Position numbers and translations under genes: made by a program. The notes beneath the pieces are model-generated. The model saw only the letters and a program-made list of their open reading frames with translations. It made no database searches and was not told the origin of the DNA. Source: Minisyncoccota bacterium (GTDB lineage Bacteria > Patescibacteriota > Minisyncoccia > Phycocordibacterales > BOKC01). From it: a stretch of DNA of 64,000 nucleotides. The stretch is taken from contig CP129473.1 of the NCBI GenBank assembly GCA_030583745.1, positions 362,887 through 426,886 of the forward strand, in the 5' to 3' direction. This document shows positions 19,213 to 35,920 of this stretch, piece by piece (positions within the stretch are counted from its first letter, which is position 1; the number at the start of each line of letters is the position of its first letter).

Positions 19213-19220
19213 AAAACAAC

Positions 19221-19447: not shown

Positions 19448-21625
19448 CTAATTTGCCAAGAGCCCGGCTCCCCTGCCGGCTCGAATCTCGGAAATGGCAT
19501 AATCAGCAGTTTCCTTAAAATTCGGGTCAATCTCAACTATTTTCTCCAATTCTTCTATGGCTTTCGGCCAATTTCTCAAAGACAGATAAGAAGCGACAAG
19601 GGCTTGGCGCGATTCTAAATTTTCCGGCTCAAACTCAACTCTCTTCTGCCAAATTTCTAAAACTTTTGAATACTGTTTTATTTCCGCTAAAGTATTCAGG
19701 AGTCGATCGTCAAAATATTTGACGGAGTCAGGTAATATCTCCCATTCAGAATTAGCTTCCGATAATCTGTCGTTTGCAAGAAGAGCCATCAAGTAAAATG
19801 TTCTGGATTCTGGATTTTCCGGCCATAAGTTTTTTGCGGATTCCAACACTTCCATCGCTTCCTCGAACCGACTGGCAGAAAACAGGGTTGAGGCAATTTC
19901 AAAATAAATACTTTGTTTTTTTGGTGAGAGTTTAGAAGCTCGCTCCAGCATCTCAAGAGACCTGTCATATTGCTCCACCTGCCTGAAAAAAACTCCGGAA
20001 GATATCAAAACTCTTGCATCAAGCGGAAACCTTTCTGTCTGAACAGATATTCTATCTTGAGCTAAGTTGAAAAAATCAAGCTTCAACTCTTCAGGGTTGT
20101 CGCTAGCAATCACCATAGACGCCTTGTTTAAAAAATGAATTAGCCCCTCTTGATTGCCAAAAGTATTGTAACTAAAAAATTTCTTGAAATGCTCTAAGCT
20201 GTCTTGATTTGCTGTTTGAGGATGTATGGCATCAATAATCGTTTTTGCCGCTAGTATTGGCTTGTAATGAAGAAAATAACCTGAAATAAAAAACACGGCG
20301 ACAAGAGCAGACAAAATTATCGTCTTGGCGTGAGCAAAAGACAGACCGGCAAACGGTAGTTTTATTGATTCCCCCGGCGTGCTCTTATAGCAGATAAAAG
20401 CCAGAATTGAGAACAAAAGAATATAACTCGTCAAATTATCAAAATCAAATATCCCCTGAAACAAATACGCGGCTAGAAATCCGGACAAAACACTTTTTTC
20501 TAAAATAGAAAAATTGGGTGTTTTCCAAAGATAAAAAATAGAAGAAAAAATAATCAATAAGAAAAATAGAAGCGCCAAAATCCCACCGGCAACAAGCCAG
20601 TCAAGATAAACATTATGAACGCGATCAAACCATGGCTCATGACCATACATTGCCGGATTGTAGTTTTCACTAAAGATGTGGATAAAATTTTCCTGACCAT
20701 AACCAAGAATCGGCCTTTCTTTAAAGCCCTCAATCGCCATCGGCCAGACAAAATAGCGTCCCTGTTCTTTTATCCCCTCAAGAGAAATAGTGGAAAACCT
20801 GGATAGAACTGGGCTCTCTTTTACAAAAGACGAGTCTTTGAAAAACCAAAACGCTCCAAGAAAAACCAATAAAAGAAGCAATAAAACTAGAGATTTTTTC
20901 CTAAGACTTTTATGCTCTTTTCCAAATACAAGTAAGAGAAAAAATGTGACTGCTAGGCCGAAAATCAAAGCTAGAGTTACACCTCTTGTCGCGGTGTTGT
21001 ATAGAATAAAGACCTGCGTCGCAATCAAAAACAAATAGAGATATCGATAGTTGTCGCGCCTCTGAAAGAAATAAAAAATCCCGATAAAGATATGGAACAT
21101 TAAATAAACTGCCAAATAGATAGCGTTGCCAAGTGTTCCGTCCAACCTAACCCCACCTTGCCTTATATCAACCGACCCCACAAGCTGAAGAAAGCTATAG
21201 AAACATATGATTGCACTTGTCACTAAAGAAACGTGGAAAAATATCTTCCAGTCTTTTTCTTTCAGAACCGAGATCATAACTACAAACAACCCAACCAAGT
21301 AAAATAGGGTGATCAATCCTTCCATTCTTTCAAAAGTTGACCAAAAGCTTCTATACGGGTCAATCCCGAAAACAGCTGAAAAGACAAGAACTACCAAAAA
21401 AGAAACGGTTGAATACAAAATCCATGATTTTTTTGGTAAATATTCTTTATTTAAAAATACAAGACCAATCCATGACAAGAAAACAATACTAACAATTATC
21501 CTGAAAGCAAACGCCTTACCGGTTATAAAAGGAAAAAACAAGGAATAGCTTATAATAAGAGGGATGAAAGGAATCAACATTAATCCCGTCACAACAAGAG
21601 TCTTTAAAATTTTCTCCGAGTTCAT
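19448..21625 (-). CDS. O-antigen ligase/polymerase (Wzy_C)-like polytopic membrane protein with C-terminal TPR repeats.
   Basis: >=10 TM helices. Block GYGQENFIHIF...HNVYLDWLVAGGILAL typical of Wzy_C/O-antigen ligase. C-terminal TPR-like helices. Confidence 0.6.
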   Translation of the reverse strand: MNSEKILKTLVVTGLMLIPFIPLIISYSLFFPFITGKAFAFRIIVSIVFLSWIGLVFLNKEYLPKKSWILYSTVSFLVVLVFSAVFGIDPYRSFWSTFERMEGLITLFYLVGLFVVMISVLKEKDWKIFFHVSLVTSAIICFYSFLQLVGSVDIRQGGVRLDGTLGNAIYLAVYLMFHIFIGIFYFFQRRDNYRYLYLFLIATQVFILYNTATRGVTLALIFGLAVTFFLLLVFGKEHKSLRKKSLVLLLLLLVFLGAFWFFKDSSFVKESPVLSRFSTISLEGIKEQGRYFVWPMAIEGFKERPILGYGQENFIHIFSENYNPAMYGHEPWFDRVHNVYLDWLVAGGILALLFFLLIIFSSIFYLWKTPNFSILEKSVLSGFLAAYLFQGIFDFDNLTSYILLFSILAFICYKSTPGESIKLPFAGLSFAHAKTIILSALVAVFFISGYFLHYKPILAAKTIIDAIHPQTANQDSLEHFKKFFSYNTFGNQEGLIHFLNKASMVIASDNPEELKLDFFNLAQDRISVQTERFPLDARVLISSGVFFRQVEQYDRSLEMLERASKLSPKKQSIYFEIASTLFSASRFEEAMEVLESAKNLWPENPESRTFYLMALLANDRLSEANSEWEILPDSVKYFDDRLLNTLAEIKQYSKVLEIWQKRVEFEPENLESRQALVASYLSLRNWPKAIEELEKIVEIDPNFKETADYAISEIRAGRGAGLLAN

Positions 21626-21712
21626 GAGCCCAATATATCATGAAAAATTAAGTGCGGATAGTATGTCATAATACAAACGTAACCCGTTAAAAATCCTCGC
21701 GGGATAAAGCAT

Positions 21713-22969
21713 ATGAAAGAAAAAATCTACAACATTCTTCGGTGGAGTGAAAAATATACCAAAACCGACATGGTTTATTTAACCAAGGGTGGCTCTTGGC
21801 TTGCTCTTGAGTACTCCTTTCAGGTAGTCAGCAGTCTTTTCTTGGCGGTTGCCTTCGCTAATCTTTTACCCAAAGAGGCCTTCGGTACTTATCAGTTCAT
21901 CATTGCTATGGCATCTATCGTCAGTGTCTTTACATTAACCGGTATGAGTAGCGCCATTATGCGCTCAGTCGCTCGCGGCACTGACGGTGCCTTACGCTAC
22001 GGTCTTCAGCTTAAACTTACCTGGAGTATTGGTATTGTTTTAGCATCAGGTGGTCTTTCACTCTATTACTTTTTTAACGACAACCAAACGCTGGCAATAG
22101 CTTTTTTGATCGTCGGCGCCTTTCAGCCTCTAATCTCCAGCTTCAAACTATATGGACCCTTCTTAGTCGGTAAAAAAAATTTCCGGGAAAATTCCACGCT
22201 GAATATTCTGCAGAAATTATTGCCATTTATTCTTCTGCTTTTGGCTCTATTTCTCACGAAAAATCCGCTTATCATTGTTGCTGTCTATTTTATTGCCAAT
22301 GCTACCTCAGTGATTTTTTTGTATCGGTACACTGTTCGGAAATACAAACTGACAATTACACCCGATCCGGAACTCAAAAGCTACAGCAAACACTTAAGTT
22401 TTATGGAATCATTTTTAAAAATTGCCGGACAGTTGGATAAAATTCTTATGTGGCATTTCCTCGGAGCCGCTTCGGTCGCAATTTATACAATTGCACAGAT
22501 GCCTGTATCACACATAAAAGGTTTATTTAATTTAGGTCACTCACTTACCTTTCCAAAATTTGCTAAAAAAAATTTAACAGAGTTAAAGATAATATTACCT
22601 AAAAAAATAACTAAATATTTTTTTATTTCAATTATCACCGCTACTGTTTATATAGTGTTTGCTCCATTTCTTTTCTCAGTTTTCTTTCCAATATATTCCG
22701 AGTCAGTCTTTTATTCACAATTGCTAGCCCTTGCCATTCTTGTTGTACCAAAAACATTCATAAATCAATCTTTCATTTCCCACCAGATGAAAAAAGAGTT
22801 ATATATATCAAACATTAGCACCTCAATAATTAGAATAATTTTAATTGCAATTTTACTACCAATCTATGGTATAACAGGAGCAATTATTGCCTTAATTATC
22901 GCAGAATTTTATGAAACAGCTTTATTATGGTTTCTTTTCCGTCGTTTACGATATCCTAGGGAAATTTGA
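21713..22969 (+). CDS. Polysaccharide biosynthesis protein / oligosaccharide flippase (Wzx-like, MOP superfamily).
   Basis: 12-TM profile. N-terminal block similar to PF01943 family members. Confidence 0.6.
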   Translation: MKEKIYNILRWSEKYTKTDMVYLTKGGSWLALEYSFQVVSSLFLAVAFANLLPKEAFGTYQFIIAMASIVSVFTLTGMSSAIMRSVARGTDGALRYGLQLKLTWSIGIVLASGGLSLYYFFNDNQTLAIAFLIVGAFQPLISSFKLYGPFLVGKKNFRENSTLNILQKLLPFILLLLALFLTKNPLIIVAVYFIANATSVIFLYRYTVRKYKLTITPDPELKSYSKHLSFMESFLKIAGQLDKILMWHFLGAASVAIYTIAQMPVSHIKGLFNLGHSLTFPKFAKKNLTELKIILPKKITKYFFISIITATVYIVFAPFLFSVFFPIYSESVFYSQLLALAILVVPKTFINQSFISHQMKKELYISNISTSIIRIILIAILLPIYGITGAIIALIIAEFYETALLWFLFRRLRYPREI

Positions 22970-23157
22970 CTAACATCTAATCTATAAAAAAGATCTCAGC
23001 CGATTATGACTGAGACCTATACTAGTTAGCTCTCTCCCAGCAGGAAAGGCGAGTATCTTCTTCAACTCTTCTGAAACCGATAGACTCGACAATCCTGATG
23101 TGGTATTCGTACAGTTCAAGCGAAAAACCAAGTATTATCGGCAGAATCTAAATAAAT

Positions 23158-23958
23158 TTATTTGTTTTCCAAAATAAAAATATAATTTGGCGAGTATTCT
23201 CCGATTGAAGGTAATTGTGAGGCAATTTTATTAATCGGGTGTAAATAATCTGGTTCTTTGTTCTCCATTTTTGCAAGTTTAGCATAAACAACCCTAGAAA
23301 TAATGTAGTATAAACTGCCGATGTTGTTTGCTTCCAAAAACTTAAAATTCTTTTTTGAAAAAGAAATGAGTTTTCCTTCTGGCATATAAAAATTGTGCCA
23401 ACGAACTTTAATTGGAAAGAGATCAAATGTCTTTCGTAAATCATTCAAGCGATCTAGTCCCTCAAGAGTATTCTCGCAAAGAATTATTCTTCCTTTCTTT
23501 TTCAACAATTTCTTCATTTCTAAAAGAGAGTGTTTCTGTTCCTCCCAATTAAGTAGGTTAATCAGACATCTTTCAGACACAATAAAATCAAACTTTTGGT
23601 TTTTGAGAAATGGCAAATCTGATAATTCCCGCACATCTCCCTCCTCAAAATTTACTCTTACTTGAACAGATTTTGAAGACTTGTTAGCAGCTTGGCGTGC
23701 ATACTTTATCATTTCGCCAGAATAATCTACACCGACGAACGAAGACTTTTTAAATTTTTCGGCAAATTTAATTGTTGAATATCCATTTCCACAACCAATG
23801 TCTAATACTTTTGTGCTATCTCTTAAATAGTCTTCTATTCTGTTAACTTCCAGTTGGCGATAAAAACTATCTGGTGCAGTAGCAAGCTCAGATTGTTTAT
23901 GCTCAATTGCCATGTTATCCCAAAACTTTTTTATTTCTGTATCTCCTGTTTTTTTCAT
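23158..23958 (-). CDS. Class I SAM-dependent methyltransferase.
   Basis: Motif I VLDIGCGNGYST. Confidence 0.75.
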   Translation of the reverse strand: MKKTGDTEIKKFWDNMAIEHKQSELATAPDSFYRQLEVNRIEDYLRDSTKVLDIGCGNGYSTIKFAEKFKKSSFVGVDYSGEMIKYARQAANKSSKSVQVRVNFEEGDVRELSDLPFLKNQKFDFIVSERCLINLLNWEEQKHSLLEMKKLLKKKGRIILCENTLEGLDRLNDLRKTFDLFPIKVRWHNFYMPEGKLISFSKKNFKFLEANNIGSLYYIISRVVYAKLAKMENKEPDYLHPINKIASQLPSIGEYSPNYIFILENK

Positions 23959-23972
23959 AAAATAAACTTATC

Positions 23973-25631
23973 TTAATCTGTTAAATCCCAACTTAAGGGT
24001 GTTCCTTTTTCAATATCTGTCTTTGCTTTTTTATTCAAAATCTCATCATAAAATTTTGGAGGCAAGCCATGTCCCGGTCTTATGGATCGCACATTTTCTT
24101 TGGTCAACTTTTCCCCTTTCTTTATGTCTTGAACCGCAAATAAAGATTTTCTAAATATTACTGATCCTACCTCCGCCGTGCCGGGACCGTCTAAAACCGA
24201 TCCCAGAGCTTTTTCCGCTTGGCGAATTGAAGACACTAAATTTTTGAATTCTTCAGGCTCAAGTGAAAAACCGGCATCTGGACCTCCATCTGATCTTCTA
24301 AGGGTAAGATGTTTTTCAATTATCTTTGCCCCTAGAGAAACCGCCATCTCTGATGCCATGCTACTTAAAGAGTGATCAGAGAGACCCGTTACTACATTAT
24401 ATCTTTTTTGCAGGTCAGGAATAGTTGACAGATTCATATCTTCCGGTTTCGTCGGGTAAGAGCTTATACAGTGCAAAACTGCGACATGAGGAGTTCCTGC
24501 CTTTTTTAAGGTTTCCAAAGCCAGCTTAATTTCTTCGCTCGAAGCCATACCGCTTGACATAATCACAGGCTTTTTTGTACTACCTACCTTTTTAAGAAGT
24601 GGAATATCAACGACTTCAAATGAAGCAATTTTATAAATTGGAACATTCAACTCCTCTAAAAAATCTACGGATGTATTATCGAAGGGCGAGGAAAAAAACA
24701 CTAAACCTAATTTCTCAGCATATTCTTTAAGCTTCGGATGCCAATCCCACGGTGTATAGGCTTCGCCGTACAGCTCATATAAATTTTTTCCATCCCAAGG
24801 TCCTCCTTTAATTTTAAAATAATCCTTATTTGAATCAATGGTAATCGTATCCGGAGTATAGGTTTGAAGTTTGACCGCATCCGAACCTGAAGCGGCGGCG
24901 GCATCCATTATTCTAAAAGCATTGTTTATGTCTTGGTTGTGATTACCTGATATCTCAGCCACGATAAAAACCGGGTGGCCGTTTCCAATAAATCTTACAC
25001 CTTGAGAGTCATTAAAGCTGAGCATGTTTTTTTTATATTGACCTTTAGACAAATCTTCCAACCCCTTTTTTTCTCTCTCTTGCCAAACTTTCATATTAGG
25101 ATTGCTTTTAAATTTTTCAATCTCAATTATCCATTTTTCATAATCGCTTGCAAGTAAAACATTCTCAGCAGATTCAATATAAACTAAGTCACTTAATTTT
25201 TGTAATTCCGTAAAATGTTCTATAAATCCCTTCACTCTAGAGGCCTGGTATTCATTAGTAACAACGAAAACATCTGTATAATGATACTTTTCTATAAAGT
25301 ATTTAATAGCAAACAATTGTTCTACGGTGTCATTAGACCTACGCTCTTTTATAATTTTTTCCTTAGGGACTCCTAGCGTCTCCAATTCAAGAGCAATCAA
25401 ATCACAAAGATCGGGTCTGTTTATTTCGTCGTTTTTTACACCTCGGCCTCGGCCTCCCGGAATAAAAATTAGTGCTTCCGGATTTTTAATATATAGTTCG
25501 TATGTCGCTTTTATTCTCAGAGTACCGCCTGGGGCAAGATCAAAATCCTCGTTAGTAAAATATCCTGTACTCACCCATTTCCCGTCTTCCTTTTTTATAC
25601 CTGCACTTAAAATAACAATTACTTTTTTCAT
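23973..25631 (-). CDS. Fusion protein: N-terminal DUF218/YdcF-like domain plus C-terminal NeuB-family nonulosonic acid synthase (sialic/pseudaminic/legionaminic acid synthase) with SAF domain.
   Basis: C-terminal half matches the NeuB/PseI/LegI TIM-barrel (VFIVAEISGNHNQD..., LHCISSYPT, SAF-like tail). N-terminal 190 aa resembles DUF218. Confidence 0.8.
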   Translation of the reverse strand: MKKVIVILSAGIKKEDGKWVSTGYFTNEDFDLAPGGTLRIKATYELYIKNPEALIFIPGGRGRGVKNDEINRPDLCDLIALELETLGVPKEKIIKERRSNDTVEQLFAIKYFIEKYHYTDVFVVTNEYQASRVKGFIEHFTELQKLSDLVYIESAENVLLASDYEKWIIEIEKFKSNPNMKVWQEREKKGLEDLSKGQYKKNMLSFNDSQGVRFIGNGHPVFIVAEISGNHNQDINNAFRIMDAAAASGSDAVKLQTYTPDTITIDSNKDYFKIKGGPWDGKNLYELYGEAYTPWDWHPKLKEYAEKLGLVFFSSPFDNTSVDFLEELNVPIYKIASFEVVDIPLLKKVGSTKKPVIMSSGMASSEEIKLALETLKKAGTPHVAVLHCISSYPTKPEDMNLSTIPDLQKRYNVVTGLSDHSLSSMASEMAVSLGAKIIEKHLTLRRSDGGPDAGFSLEPEEFKNLVSSIRQAEKALGSVLDGPGTAEVGSVIFRKSLFAVQDIKKGEKLTKENVRSIRPGHGLPPKFYDEILNKKAKTDIEKGTPLSWDLTD

Positions 25632-25636
25632 AAAAA

Positions 25637-26926
25637 CTAACGTACTTTAAAAATATCGGTAATAAGCCCGCCCTCAATTCTTTTCTCCAGAGTTTTATTT
25701 TCTATGAGAGTTTTAAGTTCAGCAAAAGTCCTATCATAAGTTTTTAATAGTTTTTCCATTTGAGGTTTTGTGTGTGAGAAACTCATATTATGCTGGCCAT
25801 ACCAGAGAAAGCCAGCTTTAAGAATTTCTTGCTGAAGATAGGTTTTTATTTCTATAGCCGAATATTCATAACTATCTTTTATCATAAATAAATTCCAACA
25901 GGGCTTGCCTTTAACTTGAATAAATTCAGAAAGACCGTGCTTTACAAGAAGCTCATTGGTATTATCTTGAAGATGTTTTCCGAGTTTCCAAATATATGGA
26001 ATAACTTTTTTCTTTTCCATTTCTTTTATAGTGGCAATTGCTGCAGCGATTGAAAGGGCTTCCCCACCCTGAGTAAAAGAGTAAAAAATTTTGTCAACTG
26101 TTTGCATATATTCTCTTTTCCCTACCAAAGCCGAAATCGGCATACCGTTTGCCATTGATTTACCGAAACAAGCTAAATCCGGAGTTACATTAAAATATTT
26201 TTGTGCTCCACCTAAAGAAAACCTGAATCCACAAATAACCTCGTCAAAAATCAAAAGTGCGCCATTTTTATGAGCCACTTTTTTTACCTCTTCCAAAAAA
26301 CCCTTTTCCGGCTCCACATAATTCATCGGCTCCATTATGACTGCCGCAATCTTGCCGGGATATTTTCTGAAAAGCGCTTTAAGAGAATCTATGTCGTTGT
26401 AATAGAACTTAAGTGTTAGATTTTTTGTGGCTTTCGGCACACCCAAATCACGAGTAGTTGAACCAATATACCAATCATGCCAGCCGTGGTATCCGCATAC
26501 CGCAACATAATCCCGCCCTGTATAAGCACGGGCAACCCTTATCGCTCCGGTCGTGGCATCCGATCCATTTTTTCCGAATCGCACCATTTCGGCGCAAGGT
26601 ATATGTTTTATTAAAAGCTCGGCCAATTCATATTCCAAAGGAGAAGGTAAGGAAAGAATGATTCCTTTTTTTAGTTGGGCTTTAATTGCATTGTCCACCG
26701 CCGGATACTGATAACCTAAAACCACCGGCAAAAGAGCGTTTATCATATCTACATACTCATTTCCGTCCACATCCCAAATTTTTGCGCCTTTAGCATGAGT
26801 AGCAAAAAGCGGTGCTTGACCTTTGATAAATTGAAGGTGGCTTTTACTGAAAGTTTGCGAAGCGAGAGGAATAACTTTCTCCACCCTTTTGAATAATTCG
26901 CTACTTTTCTTTAATTTGAGTTTCAT
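25637..26926 (-). CDS. Class-III (GSA-aminotransferase-like) PLP-dependent aminotransferase.
   Basis: hemL-like blocks, e.g. FDEVICGFR; a Lys-bearing segment FGKSMANG is present. Confidence 0.75.
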   Translation of the reverse strand: MKLKLKKSSELFKRVEKVIPLASQTFSKSHLQFIKGQAPLFATHAKGAKIWDVDGNEYVDMINALLPVVLGYQYPAVDNAIKAQLKKGIILSLPSPLEYELAELLIKHIPCAEMVRFGKNGSDATTGAIRVARAYTGRDYVAVCGYHGWHDWYIGSTTRDLGVPKATKNLTLKFYYNDIDSLKALFRKYPGKIAAVIMEPMNYVEPEKGFLEEVKKVAHKNGALLIFDEVICGFRFSLGGAQKYFNVTPDLACFGKSMANGMPISALVGKREYMQTVDKIFYSFTQGGEALSIAAAIATIKEMEKKKVIPYIWKLGKHLQDNTNELLVKHGLSEFIQVKGKPCWNLFMIKDSYEYSAIEIKTYLQQEILKAGFLWYGQHNMSFSHTKPQMEKLLKTYDRTFAELKTLIENKTLEKRIEGGLITDIFKVR

Positions 26927-27012
26927 TTTTTTATCTAATTTCTAAGCTAAAGTATTAGATATTATACAAAACTTCTTTGCTTATTGAAATTTAAAAAACC
27001 AAGAAATAAATT

Positions 27013-27047
27013 TGACAAAAAAATGATTTTGACTTATGATTAAGTCT
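27013..27047 (+). promoter_or_regulatory. Sigma70-like promoter for the 27117 gene (ttgaca -17 nt- tatgat).
   Basis: Seen in sequence. Confidence 0.4.
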
Positions 27048-27116
27048 GTTGTTCTTCGTCGTCTCATTTACCTGAAATCTTGATCTAGGAGGTGTCCCCT
27101 GATATCCGAACAAGTC

Positions 27117-27683
27117 TTGCGAAAGAGTCTTAGGCGAGAGTTCGAAACTTTGCGTATGAGGAAGGCATACGAGTTACCAGACAACGTACAAGCAATCGTG
27201 AACCTGATCGGCGCAGGCAAAAAGTGTGCCGAGGATGTTTCAAGAACTGGTCACGTTGCTCGACTCGTGAGTCAGATTGGAGCAACAGGTTCAGGTCTTC
27301 CTGTGGTTTTTCTAAACGGAGAGTCAGAAGAGCTTGAAAATATGGTGGAGCTTGCCGTTCAAGCCGATATTCCGCCTCAGATCATCCGACTCCAAGACTG
27401 TGGTCGGAAAGGTGAGGCGAATACCAAAACTCAATTTCAGGCTTTGAAAGCCGACTTGGAGTCGTATGCGCTTTCGCGCATTGTTTTGGTGACAAGCACT
27501 TACCATGTTCCCCGGGTCGCAAGAACGGCGGTTAAACACCTCCCGCCGAGTGTCTGGTTTACTGTTGTCTCTGATCTGAACGATATTGAGCTCTACGACT
27601 GGGAGGAGAGGGTGGGGAGCGAAATTGAACGGATCATCCGTTACGTCGCAAAGGGAGACATTAGCGCCGAATTGCCGGCATAA
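27117..27683 (+). CDS. DUF218/YdcF-family protein, GC-rich (~50% GC), probably horizontally acquired.
   Basis: LVTSTYHVPRVARTA matches the DUF218 hallmark. aggagg SD upstream. ORF-track TTG start; ATG at 27156 also possible. GC content clearly above flanks. Confidence 0.55.
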   Translation: MRKSLRREFETLRMRKAYELPDNVQAIVNLIGAGKKCAEDVSRTGHVARLVSQIGATGSGLPVVFLNGESEELENMVELAVQADIPPQIIRLQDCGRKGEANTKTQFQALKADLESYALSRIVLVTSTYHVPRVARTAVKHLPPSVWFTVVSDLNDIELYDWEERVGSEIERIIRYVAKGDISAELPA

Positions 27684-27703
27684 TCTCCCGACCATAAGTG
27701 AAA

Positions 27704-27737
27704 AGGGGTGTCCTTAACCGGGCACCCTTTATTTTTT
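27704..27737. terminator. Hairpin plus T-run terminator (gggtgtcc-ttaacc-gggcaccc tttatttttt), overlapping the 3' end of the convergent cytidylyltransferase gene.
   Basis: Seen in sequence. Confidence 0.55.
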
Positions 27738-28475
27738 GTCCTCTTTTAGTGATTTTAACAAACCTTCATTTCGCACAATTTTAGCATTCTTTGCCATCAC
27801 CTCTGGATTTTCAAGAAGCAAGTCGCAGTATTCCTTAAATTCAAGCTCATATCCATAATTTTCAATCAAAAACTTAATTACTTCAAAATCTTCGGGGTTG
27901 TCGACGGTCAAACGGAATTTTGAAAGATCTTGATCGTTTTCTATATTTACCTTTTTGTACTTTGGATTATTACGGATATACAAAGTTACATGTTCCCTTT
28001 CAGATCCAAGCTTGGCTTCTTCATCTGATTCAAGCAAAGATTTTCTAGTGAAGACTTCTACATCAATACCGTCTGGGTAAGTTTCCTTAAGAGCATTACT
28101 TGCGTAGTCTGCTTTTTCTTTTTTAAAAGCTGAAACTACTTCGTCTACAACTTCTGGATCAATAAGCGGGCAATCGCCGGTAACGCGAACAATTGTGTCA
28201 AACTCTGGATACTCTCTAGCGCAATCGGCAAAACGCTTTAAAACGTCGTTCAAAGATCCGCGAAAATAATTTTGATTGTTCCCGCGACAAAACTCTATAA
28301 CCTCGTTATCATCTTCGTGATCACTCGTTGCTAAAACAATTTTGTCAATTTTTTCGGATTTTTTAAGGCGTTCCAAAACATACCAAAGCATCGGCTTTCT
28401 GTTTATTTCTTTCAAGATTTTGCCTGGTAAACGAGTCGAGCTAATTCTAGCTTGAACAATACAGAGAGTTTTCAT
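27729..28475 (-). CDS. Acylneuraminate/pseudaminate cytidylyltransferase (CMP-nonulosonic acid synthetase, NeuA/PseF/SpsF-like).
   Basis: N-terminal CIVQARISSTRLPGK and CTP_transf_3 fold signature. Confidence 0.75.
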   Translation of the reverse strand: MKTLCIVQARISSTRLPGKILKEINRKPMLWYVLERLKKSEKIDKIVLATSDHEDDNEVIEFCRGNNQNYFRGSLNDVLKRFADCAREYPEFDTIVRVTGDCPLIDPEVVDEVVSAFKKEKADYASNALKETYPDGIDVEVFTRKSLLESDEEAKLGSEREHVTLYIRNNPKYKKVNIENDQDLSKFRLTVDNPEDFEVIKFLIENYGYELEFKEYCDLLLENPEVMAKNAKIVRNEGLLKSLKEDKK

Positions 28476-29425
28476 ATCAGGTATTTTAAAATTTCTTTAG
28501 CTTGGGTAACATCGTTAAAAGTTTTCTTTTTTTCCTTTACTGATTTCAAAAAATATTTAACTTCTTCAATATACATCTCGTTTTTATCGTATTCTTTTTC
28601 TCCAAAAATTTTCTTTACACTCTTCTCATTTTCAAGCCAGACAATATTCTCATTCCAATCCCAAGATAAATTACCTTTTTCTCCGACAACCCGACAAATT
28701 CTATGATATTTTTTAGACAAATAATCACAAGACACTGAACCAGATAAACCGTTTTTAAACTGAAAAATTCCCTTAGCGATATCTTCTGTTTCAATTTTCA
28801 AACTACCACTGTGTTCCTTAATAATTAAGTGTTTTTTTACTGGCGAAAAATTATTGATCCAAAACAGAAGATCAAATTCGTGAATATCGTCTAAAACTAT
28901 CCCTCCGCCCATTTTATTTTTCGCGGCATAGTTTTTTCTGTAATCAGTTCCCGGCCGCCAATATGGAAGATAATATCCGAACTCGTGGTCTACGCTATAA
29001 ATCTTACCAAGTTTTCCACTATCAATATATTTTTTGATTACCAAAAAGGCTGGATGAAAACGCATATTGCAGGCAACCATATCTATAAGTTTTTTACTTT
29101 TTAAAAGTTTTTCCAGTTTAGTTACGCCCTTCAAATCATGAGAAAGGGGTTTTTCAATAAAAAGATGAAGTCCGGCTTCAGCGCATTTAATAGAAGCTTC
29201 AACATGTTTATGATTTGGGTTGCAAATAAATGCAATATCAAAGTTACCCAAAGTTTTCTTATCCAGGATTTTTATCTTTAATTTCTGATATTTGATCTTT
29301 TTTACATCTGTATCAAAAACAGTAATGTTTTTATAACCAAGAGAAACAAGATTCCTGTAATGCCTCTGCCCAATCGATCCAAACCCGATTATTAGAATTT
29401 TTGTATTATTTTTTGTCTCCTGCAT
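28472..29425 (-). CDS. Gfo/Idh/MocA-family NAD(P)-dependent oxidoreductase.
   Basis: Rossmann motif ILIIGFGSIGQRH. Start trimmed to MQETKNN (29425). Confidence 0.7.
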   Translation of the reverse strand: MQETKNNTKILIIGFGSIGQRHYRNLVSLGYKNITVFDTDVKKIKYQKLKIKILDKKTLGNFDIAFICNPNHKHVEASIKCAEAGLHLFIEKPLSHDLKGVTKLEKLLKSKKLIDMVACNMRFHPAFLVIKKYIDSGKLGKIYSVDHEFGYYLPYWRPGTDYRKNYAAKNKMGGGIVLDDIHEFDLLFWINNFSPVKKHLIIKEHSGSLKIETEDIAKGIFQFKNGLSGSVSCDYLSKKYHRICRVVGEKGNLSWDWNENIVWLENEKSVKKIFGEKEYDKNEMYIEEVKYFLKSVKEKKKTFNDVTQAKEILKYLI

Positions 29426-31202
29426 GATACATCTTATAAAAAAAAGAATCTGTTCTAGAAAGCAAATCCCCCGGTTTCCCCTCCTCAATAATCCGACCTT
29501 TGTCCAAAACTAAAAGATGATCAACATTCATAATCGTTGACAAGCGATGAGCAATTATAAAAAGAGTGGTTTCCCCACGGAGATTATCAATGGCTCTACG
29601 TACTGCTAATTCTGACTCATTATCAAGAGCACTAGTTGCTTCGTCAAGGATAAGAAGTTGGGGATTGCGAGCAAAGACACGCGCCAAAATAAGCCTTTGG
29701 CGCTGTCCGACAGACAACATCATGCCACGATCACCGACCAAAGTGTCCAAACCTTGAGGAAGTTCTCTTATTAGATCTCTTATATAGGACTTTTCTAATG
29801 CTTCAATAACACGCTCGTCGCTTATACTTTCGTCATACAACTTTATATTGCTTCTAATAGTGTCGTGTAGCAAAAAGGGATCTTGTGATACATATCCGAT
29901 ATTGCGTCGCCATTCGTCAAGATCAAATTCGTTTGCTTCTACCCCATCAAGCAGAATTTTACCGGAACCAGGATTAAACAAGCGCAACAAAAGATCAGCT
30001 AGAGTGGTTTTACCTGCACCAGAAGAACCAATAATTCCAACCGACGCGCCCTTGCGAACAGTAAAGCTAATATCTTTAAAAACAGGTTCGCGATTATCGT
30101 AAGAAAAAGCAACATTTGAAAACTTAAGATCGTTCTTAAAAACAAAAGGTTTGCCTCCTTGAGAAATTTCCTCTTTGGAATTCAAAAGAGCGTAGTGAAA
30201 TTCAGCGAAATTACTTACATGAGGTACGTAACTTACAAGAGACTGGAGAACACTTTGAATCGATTGGATTTGAGATACAACTCTATAGATTAGGTATAAA
30301 AGGACTGCGAATACAGCAAAATTAAACTCTGGCTTCCCGTAAGAAAAAAAGAATGTGATAAAAATTATTAAAACTGCCAGCGGTTGGAAAAAAATTGTAC
30401 CTAAAGGATAAAGAGCCGAGAAACGCAAACTAGCATCGGTAAAATCAGTTGCAAATTTATCGCTTTGTCTCTGTACAAACACCCTGGAAATTCCGGTTTT
30501 AATCATCTTAATCCCGGTCATGAGTTGGTACATATAATGGACAAAGTCTTTTTCAATCTCTATAATCTTTCTTGAATAGCGACGAATAGCGACTAGTACA
30601 AAACGCAAAAGTAACATAAATACCAAACCGCTACCTAATGCCACAGCAGTCATTAAAGGAGAGATCATAAAAGCAAACACTATATAAACAACCAGGAGCA
30701 AGGAACTGTGAAGCAAACCTATCCCGCGCGATAGAAAATCAATCACCTGGGGAATATCTCGAGACATAATGTATTGAACATGACCGAACTTCTGTTTTAT
30801 TAAAAACAGCCAATTGGCATTGTAGGCATTCAGCAGAAAGTTCTGTCTAAGTAATATGGAGAGTTTATAGCTTAAAAAGTTTTGCAGAAAAGACGCCACC
30901 CAGAGCATGGAAGCTCTGGCTACAAAAAAGAAAAATATTAAAAGCAATAAAACTTGCGGACTTTGATCTACTTGTAGTCGCGAGATTAATCCATAAAAAA
31001 AAGCAATTACCTTATTTGGAGCCTCGTAAGGGACACCACTTAACGAAGAAAGAAAAGGAATCAAGATTGTAATGCCAAAGCTTTCAAAAAGCGCTCCCAA
31101 AAAAGTTACTAAAAAAATCGGTATGATAAGAAACCAAAATCGACGTAGTAGCTCCGAGATAAACCTTACTGTTGTAGAACTGTTTAGGTATCGTTGAATC
31201 AT
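29406..31202 (-). CDS. ABC transporter, fused permease/ATPase exporter (MsbA-like).
   Basis: 6-TM domain plus Walker A GSSGAGKTT, signature LSVGQRQRL, Walker B LLILDEATSALD. Confidence 0.85.
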   Translation of the reverse strand: MIQRYLNSSTTVRFISELLRRFWFLIIPIFLVTFLGALFESFGITILIPFLSSLSGVPYEAPNKVIAFFYGLISRLQVDQSPQVLLLLIFFFFVARASMLWVASFLQNFLSYKLSILLRQNFLLNAYNANWLFLIKQKFGHVQYIMSRDIPQVIDFLSRGIGLLHSSLLLVVYIVFAFMISPLMTAVALGSGLVFMLLLRFVLVAIRRYSRKIIEIEKDFVHYMYQLMTGIKMIKTGISRVFVQRQSDKFATDFTDASLRFSALYPLGTIFFQPLAVLIIFITFFFSYGKPEFNFAVFAVLLYLIYRVVSQIQSIQSVLQSLVSYVPHVSNFAEFHYALLNSKEEISQGGKPFVFKNDLKFSNVAFSYDNREPVFKDISFTVRKGASVGIIGSSGAGKTTLADLLLRLFNPGSGKILLDGVEANEFDLDEWRRNIGYVSQDPFLLHDTIRSNIKLYDESISDERVIEALEKSYIRDLIRELPQGLDTLVGDRGMMLSVGQRQRLILARVFARNPQLLILDEATSALDNESELAVRRAIDNLRGETTLFIIAHRLSTIMNVDHLLVLDKGRIIEEGKPGDLLSRTDSFFYKMYHAGDKK

Positions 31203-31217
31203 TTTTTAAAGAAATAT

Positions 31218-32324
31218 CTAATCTTTTTTGAAAAAGTCTTTCAATGTTTTTGCTATAAAATTGATATCCTTGTCAGACAACAAAGGGTGAATGGGTAGAG
31301 TGATAGCTGTCTTATGATATAAATCAGTATTTTTTAATTTTGTTTTTGCATAGCCATTTTTTCTATAATAAGGATGGGAGTAAACTGCCGGATAATGGAA
31401 ATTTACTCCAATACCTTTTTCTTTCAAAAAATTATAAAGAGGAAAACGATCTTTTTCTTTTACAGTTCTAATAACATAAACATGCCAACCAGATAAGACA
31501 TTTTCTGACTCAATTGGTAAAATTATTTCTTTAATGCCTCCGATTAATTTCTCATACTTTTTTACAATCACTCTTCTCTTTTCAACAAAATAAGGGAGAC
31601 GTTCTAATTGAGACAACCCTAGTGCGCACTGAATATCAGTTATACGGTAGTTATACCCCATTTCTGTCATAACATTAAAACCTTTTTTATCCTTATGGAT
31701 TCCGTGACTTCGTAATGACAAAAGTCGGTCATATGATTTTTTACTATTTGTTAGAATAGCCCCTCCTTCACCTGTTGTTATGGCTTTCACAGCATGAAAA
31801 CTCATGACGGTCATATCCCCTATCCCACCAATTGGTTTTTTCTTATAAACGGAACCGAGAGCATGACATCCGTCTTCGATAACTTTCAATTTATACTTTT
31901 TGGCAATTTTTAAAATTGTATCCATTTCACAAGCTCCCCCAGCAAAATGAACGGGAACAATCGCTTTGGTTTTTTTATTAATAAGACCCTCTATTTTTGT
32001 TTCATCAATATTATAAGTATCAAGACGAATGTCACAAAAGACAGGTTTGGCGCCAACTGCAAGCAACATATTTGAAGTTGCCACAAAAGTATTAGGTGTT
32101 GTTATAACTTCGTCCCCTTCCTTTAGACCAGCGACAAGGTATGCGAGATGTAATGCAGCCGTACCGTTTGATACAGCTATCGCGTATTTGGACCCACAAT
32201 ATTTTGCTAAGGCATTTTCAAACTCCAAAACTTTTGGCCCCTGCGTTAAAAAAGGAGATTTTAAAGCTTTAACTACTGCATCAATATCACTTTTGTCTAA
32301 ACATTGTTTTCCGTAAGGAATCAT
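31218..32324 (-). CDS. DegT/DnrJ/EryC1/StrS-family PLP-dependent sugar aminotransferase (PseC/ArnB-like).
   Basis: Conserved fold-type I sugar aminotransferase blocks throughout. Confidence 0.85.
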   Translation of the reverse strand: MIPYGKQCLDKSDIDAVVKALKSPFLTQGPKVLEFENALAKYCGSKYAIAVSNGTAALHLAYLVAGLKEGDEVITTPNTFVATSNMLLAVGAKPVFCDIRLDTYNIDETKIEGLINKKTKAIVPVHFAGGACEMDTILKIAKKYKLKVIEDGCHALGSVYKKKPIGGIGDMTVMSFHAVKAITTGEGGAILTNSKKSYDRLLSLRSHGIHKDKKGFNVMTEMGYNYRITDIQCALGLSQLERLPYFVEKRRVIVKKYEKLIGGIKEIILPIESENVLSGWHVYVIRTVKEKDRFPLYNFLKEKGIGVNFHYPAVYSHPYYRKNGYAKTKLKNTDLYHKTAITLPIHPLLSDKDINFIAKTLKDFFKKD

Positions 32325-32403
32325 ATAATTTAAAATTTGTATTTTTGCCTAAAAAATCATCGCGGAGTAAGATTAAAAAAACCCGAAAACCTGTAAATTT
32401 AAT

Positions 32404-33414
32404 TTAAAGCATTTGTTTTTCTAGCTCTTTTGCTATCTTAAGCAAATCGTTACGGCTCATTTGTAAAGTATTAGTATCGCTGGTAAAGGAAAAATCTGCC
32501 GGAATTTTCTTGCCCTTAGTCTTATGTTTTTTAAACCTCAAAGAATTAATGTATTTATGTTCTGGCAATATTACAAAATAGCTATCAAGTTCAAGCGAAT
32601 GTCTGGCTTCTTCCGCAGTTAGTAGAACCTCATGAATTTTTTCTCCAGGTCTAATACCACTCACCTCTTTTTTAAGATTTGGAGCGATGGTTTCAAAAAT
32701 ATCTTTTATCGACATGCTGGGAACTTTTTTAGGTATAAATATCTCACCGCCTTCCATCTGTTTCAGAGCAAATAAAACCAACTGGAAGGATTCTTCCAGC
32801 CTTAACCAAAACCTGGTCATTCTCTCATCTGTAAGACAAATGCTTTCTTTATTTTTATTCTTCAAAAGAATTTCTATGATACTACCGCGACTGCCGATAA
32901 CATTACCGTATCTCACACAGCTAAACTTTGTATATTCACCAGCGTAGACATTGCTTGCAATAAAAAGTTTCTCGGCACACAATTTTGTAGAACCATACAG
33001 ATTTACCGGCTGAGCAGCTTTATCTGTTGAAACCAAAAGCACTTTAGAAACACCTTGATCTACAGCGGCTTCAATTACATTTTGTGTTCCCAATACATTC
33101 GTCTTTACTGCTTCAATTGGATTGTATTCCAAGGTCGGAACTTGTTTTAAAGCGGCAGCGTGGACAATAATATCTACGCCATGAAAAGCCCTTTGCAACC
33201 TTGATAAATCTCTTATGTCACCCAGAAAAAAACGCACACGGTCATCTTTAAATTCCTCAGCCATTACTGACTGTTTTAATTCATCTCGGCTAAAAACAAT
33301 GAGCTTCTTCAAGGAATGATTTTCTAGAAGATGTCTGGCAAAATTTTTACCAAAAGAACCAGTCCCTCCGGTAATAAGCAAAGTTTTGTTTTTCAAAAAA
33401 TCGTTTTTTTTCAT
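32404..33414 (-). CDS. UDP-GlcNAc 4,6-dehydratase (PseB/FlaA1/CapD-like SDR).
   Basis: TGGTGSFG Rossmann motif; the Yxxx(A)K catalytic motif is present (YGSTK). Confidence 0.85.
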   Translation of the reverse strand: MKKNDFLKNKTLLITGGTGSFGKNFARHLLENHSLKKLIVFSRDELKQSVMAEEFKDDRVRFFLGDIRDLSRLQRAFHGVDIIVHAAALKQVPTLEYNPIEAVKTNVLGTQNVIEAAVDQGVSKVLLVSTDKAAQPVNLYGSTKLCAEKLFIASNVYAGEYTKFSCVRYGNVIGSRGSIIEILLKNKNKESICLTDERMTRFWLRLEESFQLVLFALKQMEGGEIFIPKKVPSMSIKDIFETIAPNLKKEVSGIRPGEKIHEVLLTAEEARHSLELDSYFVILPEHKYINSLRFKKHKTKGKKIPADFSFTSDTNTLQMSRNDLLKIAKELEKQML

Positions 33415-33454
33415 ATTTTATATGGATAAACTTATGATTTCCAAAGTATATTAA

Positions 33455-34144
33455 TTAAACTCCAGCCGAAAAGCTTTTTAATGATTTTCTTAGTAAAGTA
33501 CAAGCCCCCCTGCCAGAGGAGTCAACTTTAGCGTCTAGCTTATCGTAATCTTGACTGAAAGTAAAACGTCCAACTGGAGTATATATAGCAGTGGAAGTAA
33601 AAATTTTAGGATAATCTAGTTTGTAAGTATATACGTTCTTTTCCGGCAAATGATGGTAAAGAACTCGTGTTGGCACATCCGGTGAAAAATCACTGATAAT
33701 TAGGAAGCCCTCGTTTTTTACTAATCTATCAATTTCTGATACAGATTTTAAAAGTCCATCTCGAGCTATCCAATGAAAAACGAAAGAGACAATCACCAAA
33801 TCAAAAGAACCTTCGATCGGCATTTTTGATGCCAAAGCTCGTTGTAATTTTAATTTTGGATAACGCTTCTTACCATCGCGAACAGCTTCAGCAGAAGGTT
33901 CTACCCCCACACATTCTGCTTTGTATTTTTTTTGTAAATTATTCAACCTCCAACCGTTACTGCATCCAACTTCCAAAATTCGTCTAGGCTTAATACTGTA
34001 TTCCCCAAGCATCTTTAACACTTGATCTTCACTAGAAACAGAACGCTTTTTGGTAATTTTGTCTTTATTTCTAGTAAACCAATTGTCTCCCTCGTAATCA
34101 AAAAAAATACTGTCCTGGTTCATATATGACATCCATATTAGCAA
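33455..34144 (-). CDS. Class I SAM-dependent methyltransferase.
   Basis: ILEVGCSNGWRL motif I. Confidence 0.65.
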   Translation of the reverse strand: MLIWMSYMNQDSIFFDYEGDNWFTRNKDKITKKRSVSSEDQVLKMLGEYSIKPRRILEVGCSNGWRLNNLQKKYKAECVGVEPSAEAVRDGKKRYPKLKLQRALASKMPIEGSFDLVIVSFVFHWIARDGLLKSVSEIDRLVKNEGFLIISDFSPDVPTRVLYHHLPEKNVYTYKLDYPKIFTSTAIYTPVGRFTFSQDYDKLDAKVDSSGRGACTLLRKSLKSFSAGV

Positions 34145-34227
34145 AAAAACACCTTAACAACAAGGTTTTTACATAAGAGTTATTCAATAACCCTATCATA
34201 GAAATTATTGGCGTATTTACTTATTTT

Positions 34228-34292
34228 AGTAGTCCGTAACCTCTGCTAATCCACCGTTTGAGTTGGTAACGACACTGGTGCCGCCTAGGTGG
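34228..34292 (-). pseudogene. Stub of RHS core 3' region (third, truncated copy); encodes ...HLGGTSVVTNSNGGLAEVTDYY... but is not followed by a toxin ORF.
   Basis: ~63 bp nearly identical to 36778..36843 and similar to 37970..38035. Confidence 0.5.
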
Positions 34293-34359: not shown

Positions 34360-34734
34360 TTAATCATTATTCCAAAAATTAATTACATTATTCCACTCAT
34401 TTTTAAGATTGTCTGATAAATAAATCAAAAATTCCTCAGGATTAGCGTCTTTTTCCCAAGAAATATTATTTTGCAAGGTTTCTAATAATCCTATTGTAAT
34501 TGCTTCTTTGACATATCTATCGCCATCTTTAAATATGTTATCTATCAGTTTAAATATTGTTTTTAGTTCTTCTTCCTTTTTTTCTTTATAAAGTTTTAAA
34601 ATGTATCTGGAAAGCTCTGCAAGAATTGTGTAGACATCTTCTTTCTCCCAAACAAATTCCATAAACTCTAAATATCCTCTGAACCCATCAGATTTTTTGA
34701 CTATGTGGTCTGTTAAATCTCTCTTAGTAAACAT
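34360..34734 (-). CDS. Hypothetical 124-aa acidic protein; candidate immunity protein for the orphan toxin 34735..35505.
   Basis: Position immediately downstream of toxin cassette with 1-nt spacing. No recognisable family. Confidence 0.4.
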   Translation of the reverse strand: MFTKRDLTDHIVKKSDGFRGYLEFMEFVWEKEDVYTILAELSRYILKLYKEKKEEELKTIFKLIDNIFKDGDRYVKEAITIGLLETLQNNISWEKDANPEEFLIYLSDNLKNEWNNVINFWNND

Positions 34735-35505
34735 TTATTTTTTTATCTTACTAAGTGCATCCTTAAGATCTTTGGAAATTCTGTTTAGAACATTCCTCTC
34801 TTGAGAATTCAAACTAGATCCATGTTTATCAAATATATTATCAATTCTATTTAGGGTATTACGCGCCTTTTCAATATGGGTGGAACCCCCAACCGGGTCG
34901 CCTGTCTTTGCGGTATGTCTTATTGCGTCTGCCGTGCTACCATCCCCTATTTTCGATCCTGCTCTATAATTATCTCTTATAAGGTTAAGGATGCTTTCAT
35001 TCTCTACACCTTTCATTAAGGAACGACCCACCATATTAGTGCTTCTAAAAGCATCCCCCAACGCACCAAATACTCCAGGAATAACAGAAACTCCAGCCAA
35101 AGCTCGCTCACCCCAACTCAATCCTTCACCAGTAAATACATCTTGACCAGTGCGTGCTTCTTGAATTGCAATAGCATCACTGGAGCCGGGCGCGAAGTTA
35201 AGGGCAGTCTGGTAATTATCAACCAGTATCGGCACCAGATGAACATTTGAGGCGATGAACGAAGAGATGGCGATGAGAGCGGGGGCTAGTTGAATAAACT
35301 CCCCTCCCGGGTCCACATGTTTGATCGGATTCCCCCTAGCATAACTGTACGAATTATGCAGTTGCGGATCAGAAAGGTATTGCTCTAGTTCAAGGTTGGT
35401 TTTGTTCTTTATTTCCCCAGGATTACCTACCGCAAGAAAGACTGGGTCCTGACTCAAGAACCTAGCGGTCTTACCATCCTGATACCTCGCCACCATGTAG
35501 TTCAA
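34735..35505 (-). CDS. Orphan RHS C-terminal cassette 2: conserved core tail (in-frame extension up to ~35640 without ATG) plus divergent C-terminal toxin domain of unknown type.
   Basis: N-terminus MNYMVARYQDGKTARFLSQDPVFLAVGN parallels the main RHS junction NYMNARYQDGKVGRFISQDPVFLAVGN. Upstream in-frame sequence encodes ...TDYYPYGKIKLDE. Confidence 0.6.
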   Translation of the reverse strand: MNYMVARYQDGKTARFLSQDPVFLAVGNPGEIKNKTNLELEQYLSDPQLHNSYSYARGNPIKHVDPGGEFIQLAPALIAISSFIASNVHLVPILVDNYQTALNFAPGSSDAIAIQEARTGQDVFTGEGLSWGERALAGVSVIPGVFGALGDAFRSTNMVGRSLMKGVENESILNLIRDNYRAGSKIGDGSTADAIRHTAKTGDPVGGSTHIEKARNTLNRIDNIFDKHGSSLNSQERNVLNRISKDLKDALSKIKK

Positions 35506-35668
35506 ATCAGTAGCTTCGTCATAGAAGTGCCCGGTGAATTTTCTTCTTTCTTTAAATGTACCTGTCGTCTCGTCTAACTTTATCTTACCATACGGGTAGT
35601 AGTCCGTAACCTCTGTTAATCCACCTCTACTGGTGGATTAGCGAAATAATAAATTAAAAAGAAATTTG

Positions 35669-35917
35669 TTAAATTTTCATGTGGGGAGAACAAAAACCTG
35701 TGAGATAATCTAAGGCCTCTAATACCCAATCTTCATCTTTCTCTCTGCCTTCTTTCCGTAGAAAAAGCATATACTCTGTCACATCGCTCTCTAATTGTTT
35801 CCGATCATACCCTTCCTTGAGAATCTTAATGAAAAGTTCGCGCATTTTAAGATCAGGGTCCATTTCTGCCTTGAGAGCTTCCTCTATACCATTTATCAAT
35901 TCTTCTTTCTTTTTCAT
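35669..35917 (-). CDS. Hypothetical 82-aa protein; candidate immunity protein for orphan cassette 1.
   Basis: Genomic position only. Confidence 0.35.
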   Translation of the reverse strand: MKKKEELINGIEEALKAEMDPDLKMRELFIKILKEGYDRKQLESDVTEYMLFLRKEGREKDEDWVLEALDYLTGFCSPHMKI

Positions 35918-35920
35918 AAA

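Follow-up and report, generated by a model that had tools for sequence, protein, structure and literature searches.

In a 64,000-nt window of contig CP129473.1 from a Minisyncoccota bacterium (positions 362,887 to 426,886; hereafter the window), a standalone DUF218 gene at 27117-27683 on the plus strand lies within a pseudaminic-acid locus and carries a composition foreign to its surroundings. We propose that this copy did not evolve in place, and that a DUF218 gene typical of such loci, with an accessory role in the glycan pathway, was acquired, or xenologously replaced, through horizontal transfer. The source would be a lineage of higher GC in which Shine-Dalgarno (SD) sequences are in use. 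As an explanation of the whole we consider this moderately probable. The gene anatomy, fold, family, foreign composition and recurrent layout are shown directly, whereas we infer both the transfer and its direction, and the donor would most likely be another Patescibacterium. The gene would be monocistronic, and its product would be a soluble protein of the YdcF fold from a Patescibacteria-specific subfamily that serves as a regular accessory of glycan loci, especially those for pseudaminic acid.

The DUF218 gene is compositionally foreign to its locus

The first-pass annotation had described the gene as a GC-rich (about 50%) outlier placed antisense in its locus, and both points hold. In a window of 38.9% GC overall, the open reading frame (ORF) of 188 aa has a GC of 0.503, with 0.598 at first (GC1) and 0.508 at third (GC3) codon positions, and it is the sole substantial plus-strand ORF between 23 and 48 kb. 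The GC3 of the 38 other genes in the window averages 0.331 (sd 0.045, maximum 0.422), which places the DUF218 gene at z = +3.97. Nor is its codon usage uniform with that of its neighbours: when the synonymous codons were scored under the usage of the other genes, its log-likelihood was the lowest of all (z = -3.75, rank 1 of 39), making it the most atypical gene. A 100-nt GC profile delimits a GC-rich block at about 27050-27730, the step being sharp at both ends, with a promoter region of 19% GC on one side and the terminator on the other. Furthermore, the difference between GARP and FYMINK residues is +0.06 for the DUF218 protein, against -0.04 to -0.28 for the native genes of the window and -0.10 to -0.19 for AT-rich homologues. 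Because the amino-acid bias is shifted as well, the foreignness of the gene is not restricted to synonymous sites. This bears on the alternative that the gene is native and vertically inherited, with its GC content, codon usage and SD kept by selection, for instance for strong independent expression, for mRNA stability or for tolerance of head-on transcription within the cluster; we consider this unlikely, and the amino-acid shift goes beyond what synonymous sites alone would display. An antisense ORF of 123 aa (27324-27695, minus strand) matched no family and was put down to the high GC of the stretch.

An assembly chimera or a contaminating fragment would also leave an abrupt change of composition at the two ends of the block. 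The DUF218 gene and the same neighbours were found on contigs from four independently assembled sequencing runs, all collinear with the window across both junctions at 99.3-100% identity, and a metagenome-assembled genome at NCBI (Candidatus Paceibacterota bacterium), where both junctions are likewise the same, has an entry identical to the protein in its 175-aa form. Since four independent assemblies share both junctions, a chimera is excluded, barring a systematic error common to independent samples, and we regard its residual probability as close to negligible.

Strain variation was also examined in this region. Between the two strains compared, those of the window (positions 17156-34265) and of L001, single-nucleotide polymorphisms (SNPs) are very unevenly distributed and number 93 in 17.0-22.0 kb, 0 in 22.0-28.0 kb and 21 in 28.0-34.3 kb. 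The central block, to which both the DUF218 gene and the PseI fusion described below belong, looks like the product of a recent recombination or sweep. Strain SNPs were uninformative; the whole 22-28 kb block has none.

Transcription signals, translation start and gene neighbourhood

The features of the locus considered here are as follows.

27117-27683, plus strand: standalone DUF218 (YdcF-like) coding sequence for a predicted cytoplasmic protein, 188 aa from TTG; possible start CTG 27099; public start ATG 27156 (175 aa)
27012-27040, plus strand: putative sigma-70-type promoter, TTGACA-17 nt-TATGAT, with the -35 at 27012-27017 and the -10 at 27035-27040
27087-27092, plus strand: AGGAGG SD-like motif in a leader of about 70 nt with 44% GC
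27703-27737, unstranded: terminator hairpin and T-run; stem 27703-27730 of 11 pairs (6 G-C), then ATTTTTT
26961-26989, minus strand: candidate divergent promoter, predicted from its motifs, for the aminotransferase / DUF218-PseI / methyltransferase unit
25637-26926, minus strand: divergent neighbour, class-III aminotransferase (Pfam Aminotran_3, 9e-50)
27729-28475, minus strand: convergent neighbour, CMP-sugar cytidylyltransferase for the PseF step (Pfam CTP_transf_3, 1e-34; weak NCBIfam PseF match)
23973-25631, minus strand: DUF218-PseI fusion of an N-terminal DUF218 with NeuB and SAF (Pfam DUF218, NeuB and SAF; NCBIfam PseI, 481.5 bits against a cut-off of 340.25)
31218-32324, minus strand: PseC aminotransferase (NCBIfam PseC, 437.8 bits against 423.5)
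32404-33414, minus strand: PseB, inverting UDP-GlcNAc 4,6-dehydratase (NCBIfam PseB, 442.8 bits against 407.75)

The canonical promoter and the hairpin-T terminator reported earlier for this gene were both recovered. The promoter matches 11 of 12 consensus positions and is the joint best in a scan of 20-35 kb; as a class, promoter-like sites are not enriched in that region (48 found, 43 expected in shuffled sequence). The terminator is the top-ranked one in the same 20-35 kb. Its hairpin lies immediately next to the stop codon with which the convergent cytidylyltransferase gene ends at 27729, and because the hairpin is followed on the minus strand by TTTTCACTT, it probably closes both convergent units as a bidirectional terminator. 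On the other side of the gene, the candidate divergent promoter consists of a perfect minus-strand TATAAT (26966-26961; ATTATA on the plus strand) about 35 nt before the aminotransferase ATG at 26926 and a weak -35 (TTTCAA, 3 of 6 positions), which falls under the threshold of the promoter scan. A 190-bp AT-rich spacer thus holds the DUF218 promoter on one strand and the TATAAT of the aminotransferase unit on the other. Considering the promoters of this spacer and the shared hairpin, the DUF218 gene would lie between two minus-strand units and would therefore not interrupt a single operon. In the arrangement that we propose, a sigma-70 promoter of its own would drive it at the junction of these two units, on the strand opposite to theirs, and its transcript would end at the hairpin that also closes the convergent pseF-like gene.

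Translation is less straightforward. The AGGAGG motif noted in the first-pass annotation is present, but the textbook spacing is not: downstream of an in-frame TGA at 27081, the motif lies 6 nt from an in-frame CTG at 27099, 24 nt from the TTG at 27117 and 63 nt from the ATG at 27156, so that of the candidate starts only the CTG is correctly spaced. That native genes have no recognisable SD was also borne out, as a placed GGAG-type motif was found in just 3 of the 38 other window genes and SD use in the genome is very low. To place the start, the N-terminal residues are informative. L5, E8 and F9 (numbered from TTG 27117) lie upstream of the public ATG, and all three are nearly invariant in a 40-sequence alignment (A3), with F9 invariant in a 26-sequence alignment (A1). 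In the AlphaFold2 model (mean predicted local distance difference test, pLDDT, 95.7; predicted template modelling score, pTM, 0.91) they fall within a confident first helix, residues 2-14. Since a start at ATG 27156 would remove this conserved and confidently modelled helix, the public gene model truncates the protein at its 5' end; the most likely start codon is TTG 27117 or CTG 27099.

The spacing of the SD leaves room for a decaying or silent acquisition, in which the original ATG behind the SD would have become CTG by mutation and production of the protein would have ceased: AGGAGG is placed correctly only for CTG 27099, and neither of the canonical starts, TTG or ATG, is preceded by an SD of its own. 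Against this, the reading frame is intact over 188-194 codons, the residues invariant in the family are all kept, the structure model is confident, and both promoter and terminator are intact; TTG 27117 could function as the start codon, given that most genes of the genome have no SD. We consider decay very unlikely.

The leader and the gene were also considered as possible hosts of a riboswitch or other structured RNA, which was rejected: neither part had an Rfam match, whether by gathering or by E-value threshold, and shuffled sequence folds better than the leader does. The lack of an RNA family match or unusual structure in leader and coding sequence also counts against selection on a native gene.

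The protein belongs to a divergent DUF218 subfamily

The protein matches Pfam DUF218 (PF02698) at residues 38-142 with 32.0 bits (gathering cut-off 27.6), and its public annotation reads 'ElyC/SanA/YdcF family protein'. It is a single domain with the Rossmannoid alpha/beta fold of the YdcF type. No NCBIfam model was matched at 1e-5, a Foldseek search of the model against the PDB gave no match, and profile searches of PDB sequences yielded no sequence-level match to YdcF. With a view to the Thr-His-Glu triad proposed as catalytic for DUF218 proteins (PMC12176290), H130 is invariant within the subfamily and T103, T105, T137, E39 and E169 are nearly so; no residue alignment to SanA or YdcF was obtained. 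The window protein keeps all family-invariant residues. Its N-terminus is a charged amphipathic helix, MRKSLRREFETLR, which is part of the folded domain, and no hydrophobic segment is visible by eye. Based on these features, we predict a soluble, cytoplasmic, YdcF-like protein, in contrast to the anchored ElyC and SanA type.

A HMMER search of 1.84 billion cluster representatives returned 144 proteins at E <= 1e-3. Apart from the query none fell below 1e-30, the best matches being about 40-45% identical, and the closest known relative of the window protein has at most 46% identity. The first-pass annotation had expected the nearest homologues in a different phylum, which was not the case: every relative with a named organism is from Patescibacteria (Paceibacterota, Zambryskibacteria, Saccharibacteria and Levybacteria). 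The proteins form a small, divergent and distinct DUF218 subfamily tied to pseudaminic-acid loci, and judging from the sequences retrieved it appears to be found almost only in glycan loci of Patescibacteria (candidate phyla radiation, CPR). That the standalone gene might have arisen by duplication of the NeuB-fused DUF218 domain in the same locus was also considered and was rejected, the two being 29% identical over 56 residues with an hhalign probability of 23%.

The nearest characterised comparisons are remote. E. coli YdcF (PDB 3CA8) is likewise a soluble DUF218 protein, but it is 12% identical to the window protein, gives no profile-level sequence match, has 259 aa against 188 aa and differs from a protein that sits in a nonulosonic-acid locus. 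With ElyC and SanA the protein shares the DUF218 domain, a genetic tie to envelope-glycan biosynthesis and the status of a suspected enzyme (PMC12176290). However, ElyC and SanA of Enterobacterales are membrane-anchored and periplasmic, whereas the window protein has no visible anchor and comes from a different phylum. If cytoplasmic, it would therefore act on nucleotide-linked intermediates and not on flipped, lipid-linked ones.

An opposite-strand layout recurs in related loci

We recovered the DNA around 14 further subfamily members, and a related-locus search with a narrower alignment gave 2 loci from the genome collection and 5 from the metagenome collection. All 14 lie inside glycan-biosynthesis loci, and relatives in such loci of Patescibacteria are 35-46% identical to the window protein. 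The loci compared for layout and composition are listed below by locus, GC of the host contig, placement of the gene and composition of the gene.

L005: contig GC 32%; lone, opposite to both neighbours; GC 0.54, GC3 0.60, neighbours GC3 about 0.20
L019, first copy: contig GC 39%; lone, opposite strand; GC 0.50, GC3 0.58, neighbours about 0.37
L025, L026, L027: contig GC about 39-40%; lone, opposite strand; host-like composition
L018 (Saccharibacteria): contig GC 52.5%; lone, opposite strand; host-like composition
L028, L011, L015, L031, L032: contig GC 34-48%; co-oriented in an operon; host-like composition

The DUF218 gene stands alone and opposite to both neighbours in seven loci (the window, L005, L018, L019, L025, L026 and L027). 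In the six loci other than the window, its neighbours include PseB-like, DegT/PseC, NeuB/PseI, CTP_transf_3 and GNAT genes; promoter-like upstream sequence of its own was found in 6 of 6 and a terminator hairpin of its own in 4 of 6. A self-contained opposite-strand layout is thus a recurrent trait of the DUF218 gene in pseudaminic-acid loci and nothing peculiar to the window.

High GC is more restricted. It is limited to three copies in AT-rich hosts, those of the window, L005 and L019, each of which carries a GGAGG SD that is rare or missing among host genes in the stretches available (3 of 38 in the window, 0 of 8 in L005, 0 of 11 in L019). In L018, L031 and L032, whose genomes have 47-53% GC, the composition of the family member is host-like, which makes donor-type lineages plausible.

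The case of L019 is the most instructive for the origin of such copies. In this pseudaminic-acid locus from Zambryskibacteria, two DUF218 genes stand in tandem on the same strand (L019:5983-7258). The first copy (5983-6543) is GC-rich, has a TTGACA-17-TATAAT promoter, GGAGG and a terminator, and lies directly upstream of the second (6707-7258), which has native composition (GC 0.41) and no SD. The two proteins are 65% identical to each other. The native-like copy is 72-74% identical to its orthologues in L025 and L027, and the GC-rich copy is 65-68% identical to the whole clade of the native-like copy, to which it is an outgroup. Because the native copy is closer to the L025 and L027 orthologues, the GC-rich copy would be no local duplicate but an incomer from outside that clade, placed beside a resident. 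A single, monophyletic lineage of GC-rich cassettes was rejected by a neighbour-joining tree and the identity matrix, in which the three GC-rich copies are not mutual closest relatives; it follows that the acquisition events would have been independent.

These loci also allow the native-gene alternative to be weighed further. That the GC excess recurs in three non-sister copies, all with a strong promoter, SD and terminator layout, that mobility signatures are missing, and that no AT-rich copy was seen in a GC-rich host are what selection on a vertically inherited gene might produce. However, four opposite-strand copies (L025, L026, L027 and the second copy of L019) have host-like GC, so the opposite-strand layout does not require high GC, and the GC-rich copy of L019 falls outside the clade of its native-like neighbour.

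Proposed transfer as replacement of a resident gene

Xenologous acquisition from a higher-GC lineage remains the explanation that we prefer, and the relatives define its form. Since they are regular residents of glycan loci in Patescibacteria, the event would be a like-for-like xenologous replacement and not the insertion of an alien gene: the window copy would fill a slot that is held by an orthologue of native composition in related loci. The first-pass annotation had suggested a recently acquired, self-contained cassette; the gene is indeed self-contained and foreign, but the notion of an alien insert does not stand. 'Recent' here means only that the composition of the gene has not yet drifted towards that of its host. 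Dating the acquisition from close relatives was ruled out, as the nearest homologue of the window PseI is 68% identical.

Phage morons are promoter-gene-terminator units with deviant GC, and xenologous gene displacement occurs in surface-polysaccharide loci, which are known for gene exchange. The window resembles both in having a self-contained unit of deviant GC and codon usage in a glycan locus. Unlike morons, the unit is accompanied by no prophage, mobility gene or phage relatives, and the incoming DUF218 gene would replace a member of its own family without adding a new function. A related possibility is an actively mobile, moron- or integron-like cassette that hops between glycan loci, perhaps of phage origin and with a role in surface remodelling. 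A self-contained unit of foreign composition, neighbours that vary from locus to locus, and the tandem placement beside a resident copy in L019 would all suit such an element. Nevertheless, terminal repeats, attC-like sites, integrases and transposases were not found nearby, relatives were missing from IMG/VR, INPHARED phages and PLSDB plasmids, and the copies are just 35-50% identical to one another, so no recently shared mobile element is visible. We rate such a cassette as quite unlikely. In the candidates screened, direct or inverted repeats flanking the gene in the window, L005 and L019 amounted to short chance matches, and a phage or plasmid origin was dismissed because relatives appeared neither in tblastn searches of INPHARED and PLSDB nor when IMG/VR was scanned with a pattern.

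Several points weigh against replacement by transfer. No donor was found, the window protein being at most 46% identical to anything known and its gene having a long branch in the tree. The databases hold no close relative of the species, and hence no close relative without the DUF218 gene; the next PseI homologue is the one at 68% identity. Flanking repeats, att sites and mobility genes were not found around the gene, nor were relatives in phage, plasmid or viral collections. Three GC-rich copies are known in AT-rich hosts and none of the reverse kind, a pattern that selection on composition could produce.

Among the AT-rich loci sampled, three have a copy of foreign composition in the same slot, and L019 keeps both the resident and the presumed incomer. 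If the transfer reading is right, they illustrate how ultra-small, host-dependent bacteria exchange genes like for like in their surface-glycan loci. As gene transfer the DUF218 case is ordinary; it is as a lead to chemistry that it is useful.

A possible role at the PseG step

DUF218 proteins (ElyC, SanA, YdcF) are widespread and affect the synthesis of peptidoglycan and enterobacterial common antigen and the antibiotic barrier function. They have been described as probably enzymatic, with a Thr-His-Glu triad, and as limiting the flux of envelope-glycan intermediates linked to undecaprenyl pyrophosphate (Und-PP) (PMC12176290). In the literature searched, we found no paper linking DUF218 with nonulosonic, pseudaminic or legionaminic acids. 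The window places a soluble DUF218 protein in a well-understood six-step pathway with one step without a candidate enzyme and with fusions to the enzymes on either side. This makes the activity of DUF218 a question for a simple in vitro assay and offers a lead to its long-unknown chemistry.

PseB, PseC and PseI of the locus all exceed their NCBIfam equivalog cut-offs, and the cytidylyltransferase at 27729-28475 (minus strand) scores 33.8 bits against a PseF cut-off of 205.7. No PseG or PseH was detected among the window ORFs scanned, which were all but 2533-5706, 37130-43663 and a few short ones. In L025, L026 and L027 a PseH-like GNAT adjoins the DUF218 gene, and the neighbours without annotation that were tested there included no PseG either.

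The functional link to NeuB/PseI that the first-pass annotation had suspected from the N-terminal DUF218 domain of the NeuB gene (23973-25631, minus strand), a domain confirmed by Pfam, is strengthened by fusions elsewhere. Of 8,000 PseI homologues scored, architectures were read from the best 120, among which PseI-GNAT fusions also occur. P0223 (L030:9001-10509, 502 aa) combines DUF218, PseI and SAF and is 48% identical to the window fusion. P0267 (L029:3733-5883, 716 aa) has the order PseI, SAF, PseH-like GNAT, DUF218, and its DUF218 part matches the profile of the standalone family over 154 columns with an hhalign probability of 94%. Locus L030 encodes, in addition, a NeuB-cytidylyltransferase fusion of 591 aa.

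PseG is the UDP-sugar hydrolase of the pseudaminic acid pathway and has a GT-B fold. The DUF218 protein may act on a nucleotide-sugar intermediate of the pathway, and its most likely role would be to release the free 6-deoxy-hexose from the UDP carrier, the PseG step that feeds PseI. Because DUF218 is fused to the enzymes flanking the unfilled step, has a fold of the nucleotide-binding type and is predicted to be cytoplasmic, we put forward a PseG-like nucleotide-sugar hydrolase as a tentative possibility. The likeness to PseG would concern the position in the pathway only, since the window protein is not homologous to PseG, has a single domain and matches no PseG model (NCBIfam TIGR03590, which we take to be that of PseG). 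If a DUF218 protein does replace PseG by hydrolysing the UDP-linked 2,4-diacetamido-trideoxy-hexose, this would be the first defined biochemical activity of the DUF218 fold, and by extension ElyC and SanA might control envelope synthesis by cleaving diphosphate-linked sugar intermediates, on Und-PP or nucleoside diphosphate (NDP). It is doubtful that the full set of claims holds jointly, namely a non-homologous PseG replacement, a first DUF218 activity, cleavage of Und-PP or NDP sugars by ElyC and SanA, and a gene repeatedly exchanged as an opposite-strand unit from promoter to terminator.

Four observations speak against this assignment. The SD is misplaced with respect to the canonical start codons, so that expression of the gene is only predicted. 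Some family members have no NeuB in their locus or adjoin an Epimerase_2 gene (L005, L011, L015, L031 and L032), and for this reason a strict PseG role cannot cover the whole family. PseG could be encoded elsewhere than in the 64-kb window. In addition, the window locus has a second DUF218 domain, on PseI, which makes the division of roles between the two ambiguous.

It is likewise possible, at a level that falls well short of a preference, that DUF218 acts as a flux brake or regulator of the kind proposed for ElyC and SanA, by hydrolysing CMP-pseudaminic acid or a lipid-linked intermediate, or by binding S-adenosylmethionine (SAM) or a nucleotide. Loss of ElyC and SanA is reported to raise the flux of enterobacterial common antigen or peptidoglycan precursors (PMC12176290). 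Independent expression would let surface glycosylation be tuned, and such a role fits the independent transcription unit equally well; the gene is a separate opposite-strand unit in seven loci, and family members are also found in loci without NeuB. By contrast, fusion to PseI, and to PseI with PseH, is the expectation for consecutive pathway enzymes, and none of the loci examined offers another candidate for the PseG step.

Other observations in the window

The longest ORF of a Gfo/Idh/MocA oxidoreductase (28472-29488) overlaps an ABC transporter gene (29406-31202) by 83 nt; the public call uses a later start (317 aa) and has an overlap of about 20 nt. A polymorphic-toxin-like module (34360-36676 and 37130-43663) adjoins the glycan locus, with a Pre-toxin TG domain, a Tse2-like ADP-ribosyltransferase toxin domain and DUF7674 proteins downstream of a 2177-aa ORF, and in codon usage two of its genes are the most atypical of the window next to the DUF218 gene. 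At 43825-48407 lie three ORFs in tandem, each about 480 aa long. The first two (43825-45291 and 45485-46948) have weak Pfam Capsule_synth matches and the third (46977-48407) has no NCBIfam match; the 30 nt upstream of the first and the third are identical (catttttaatggtttcctacttctaacggg), which suggests a recent duplication.

At 61786-62227, Rfam identifies four tRNA genes and ARAGORN three, without the 65-nt match at 62054-62118 (41 bits). Of the ORFs 7259-8116 and 54915-56657, one weakly matches the CPR-type pilus protein PamT and the other is an ATPase with weak matches to DNA-translocation coupling proteins of the TraD/CedD type, both of which fit an origin in Patescibacteria.

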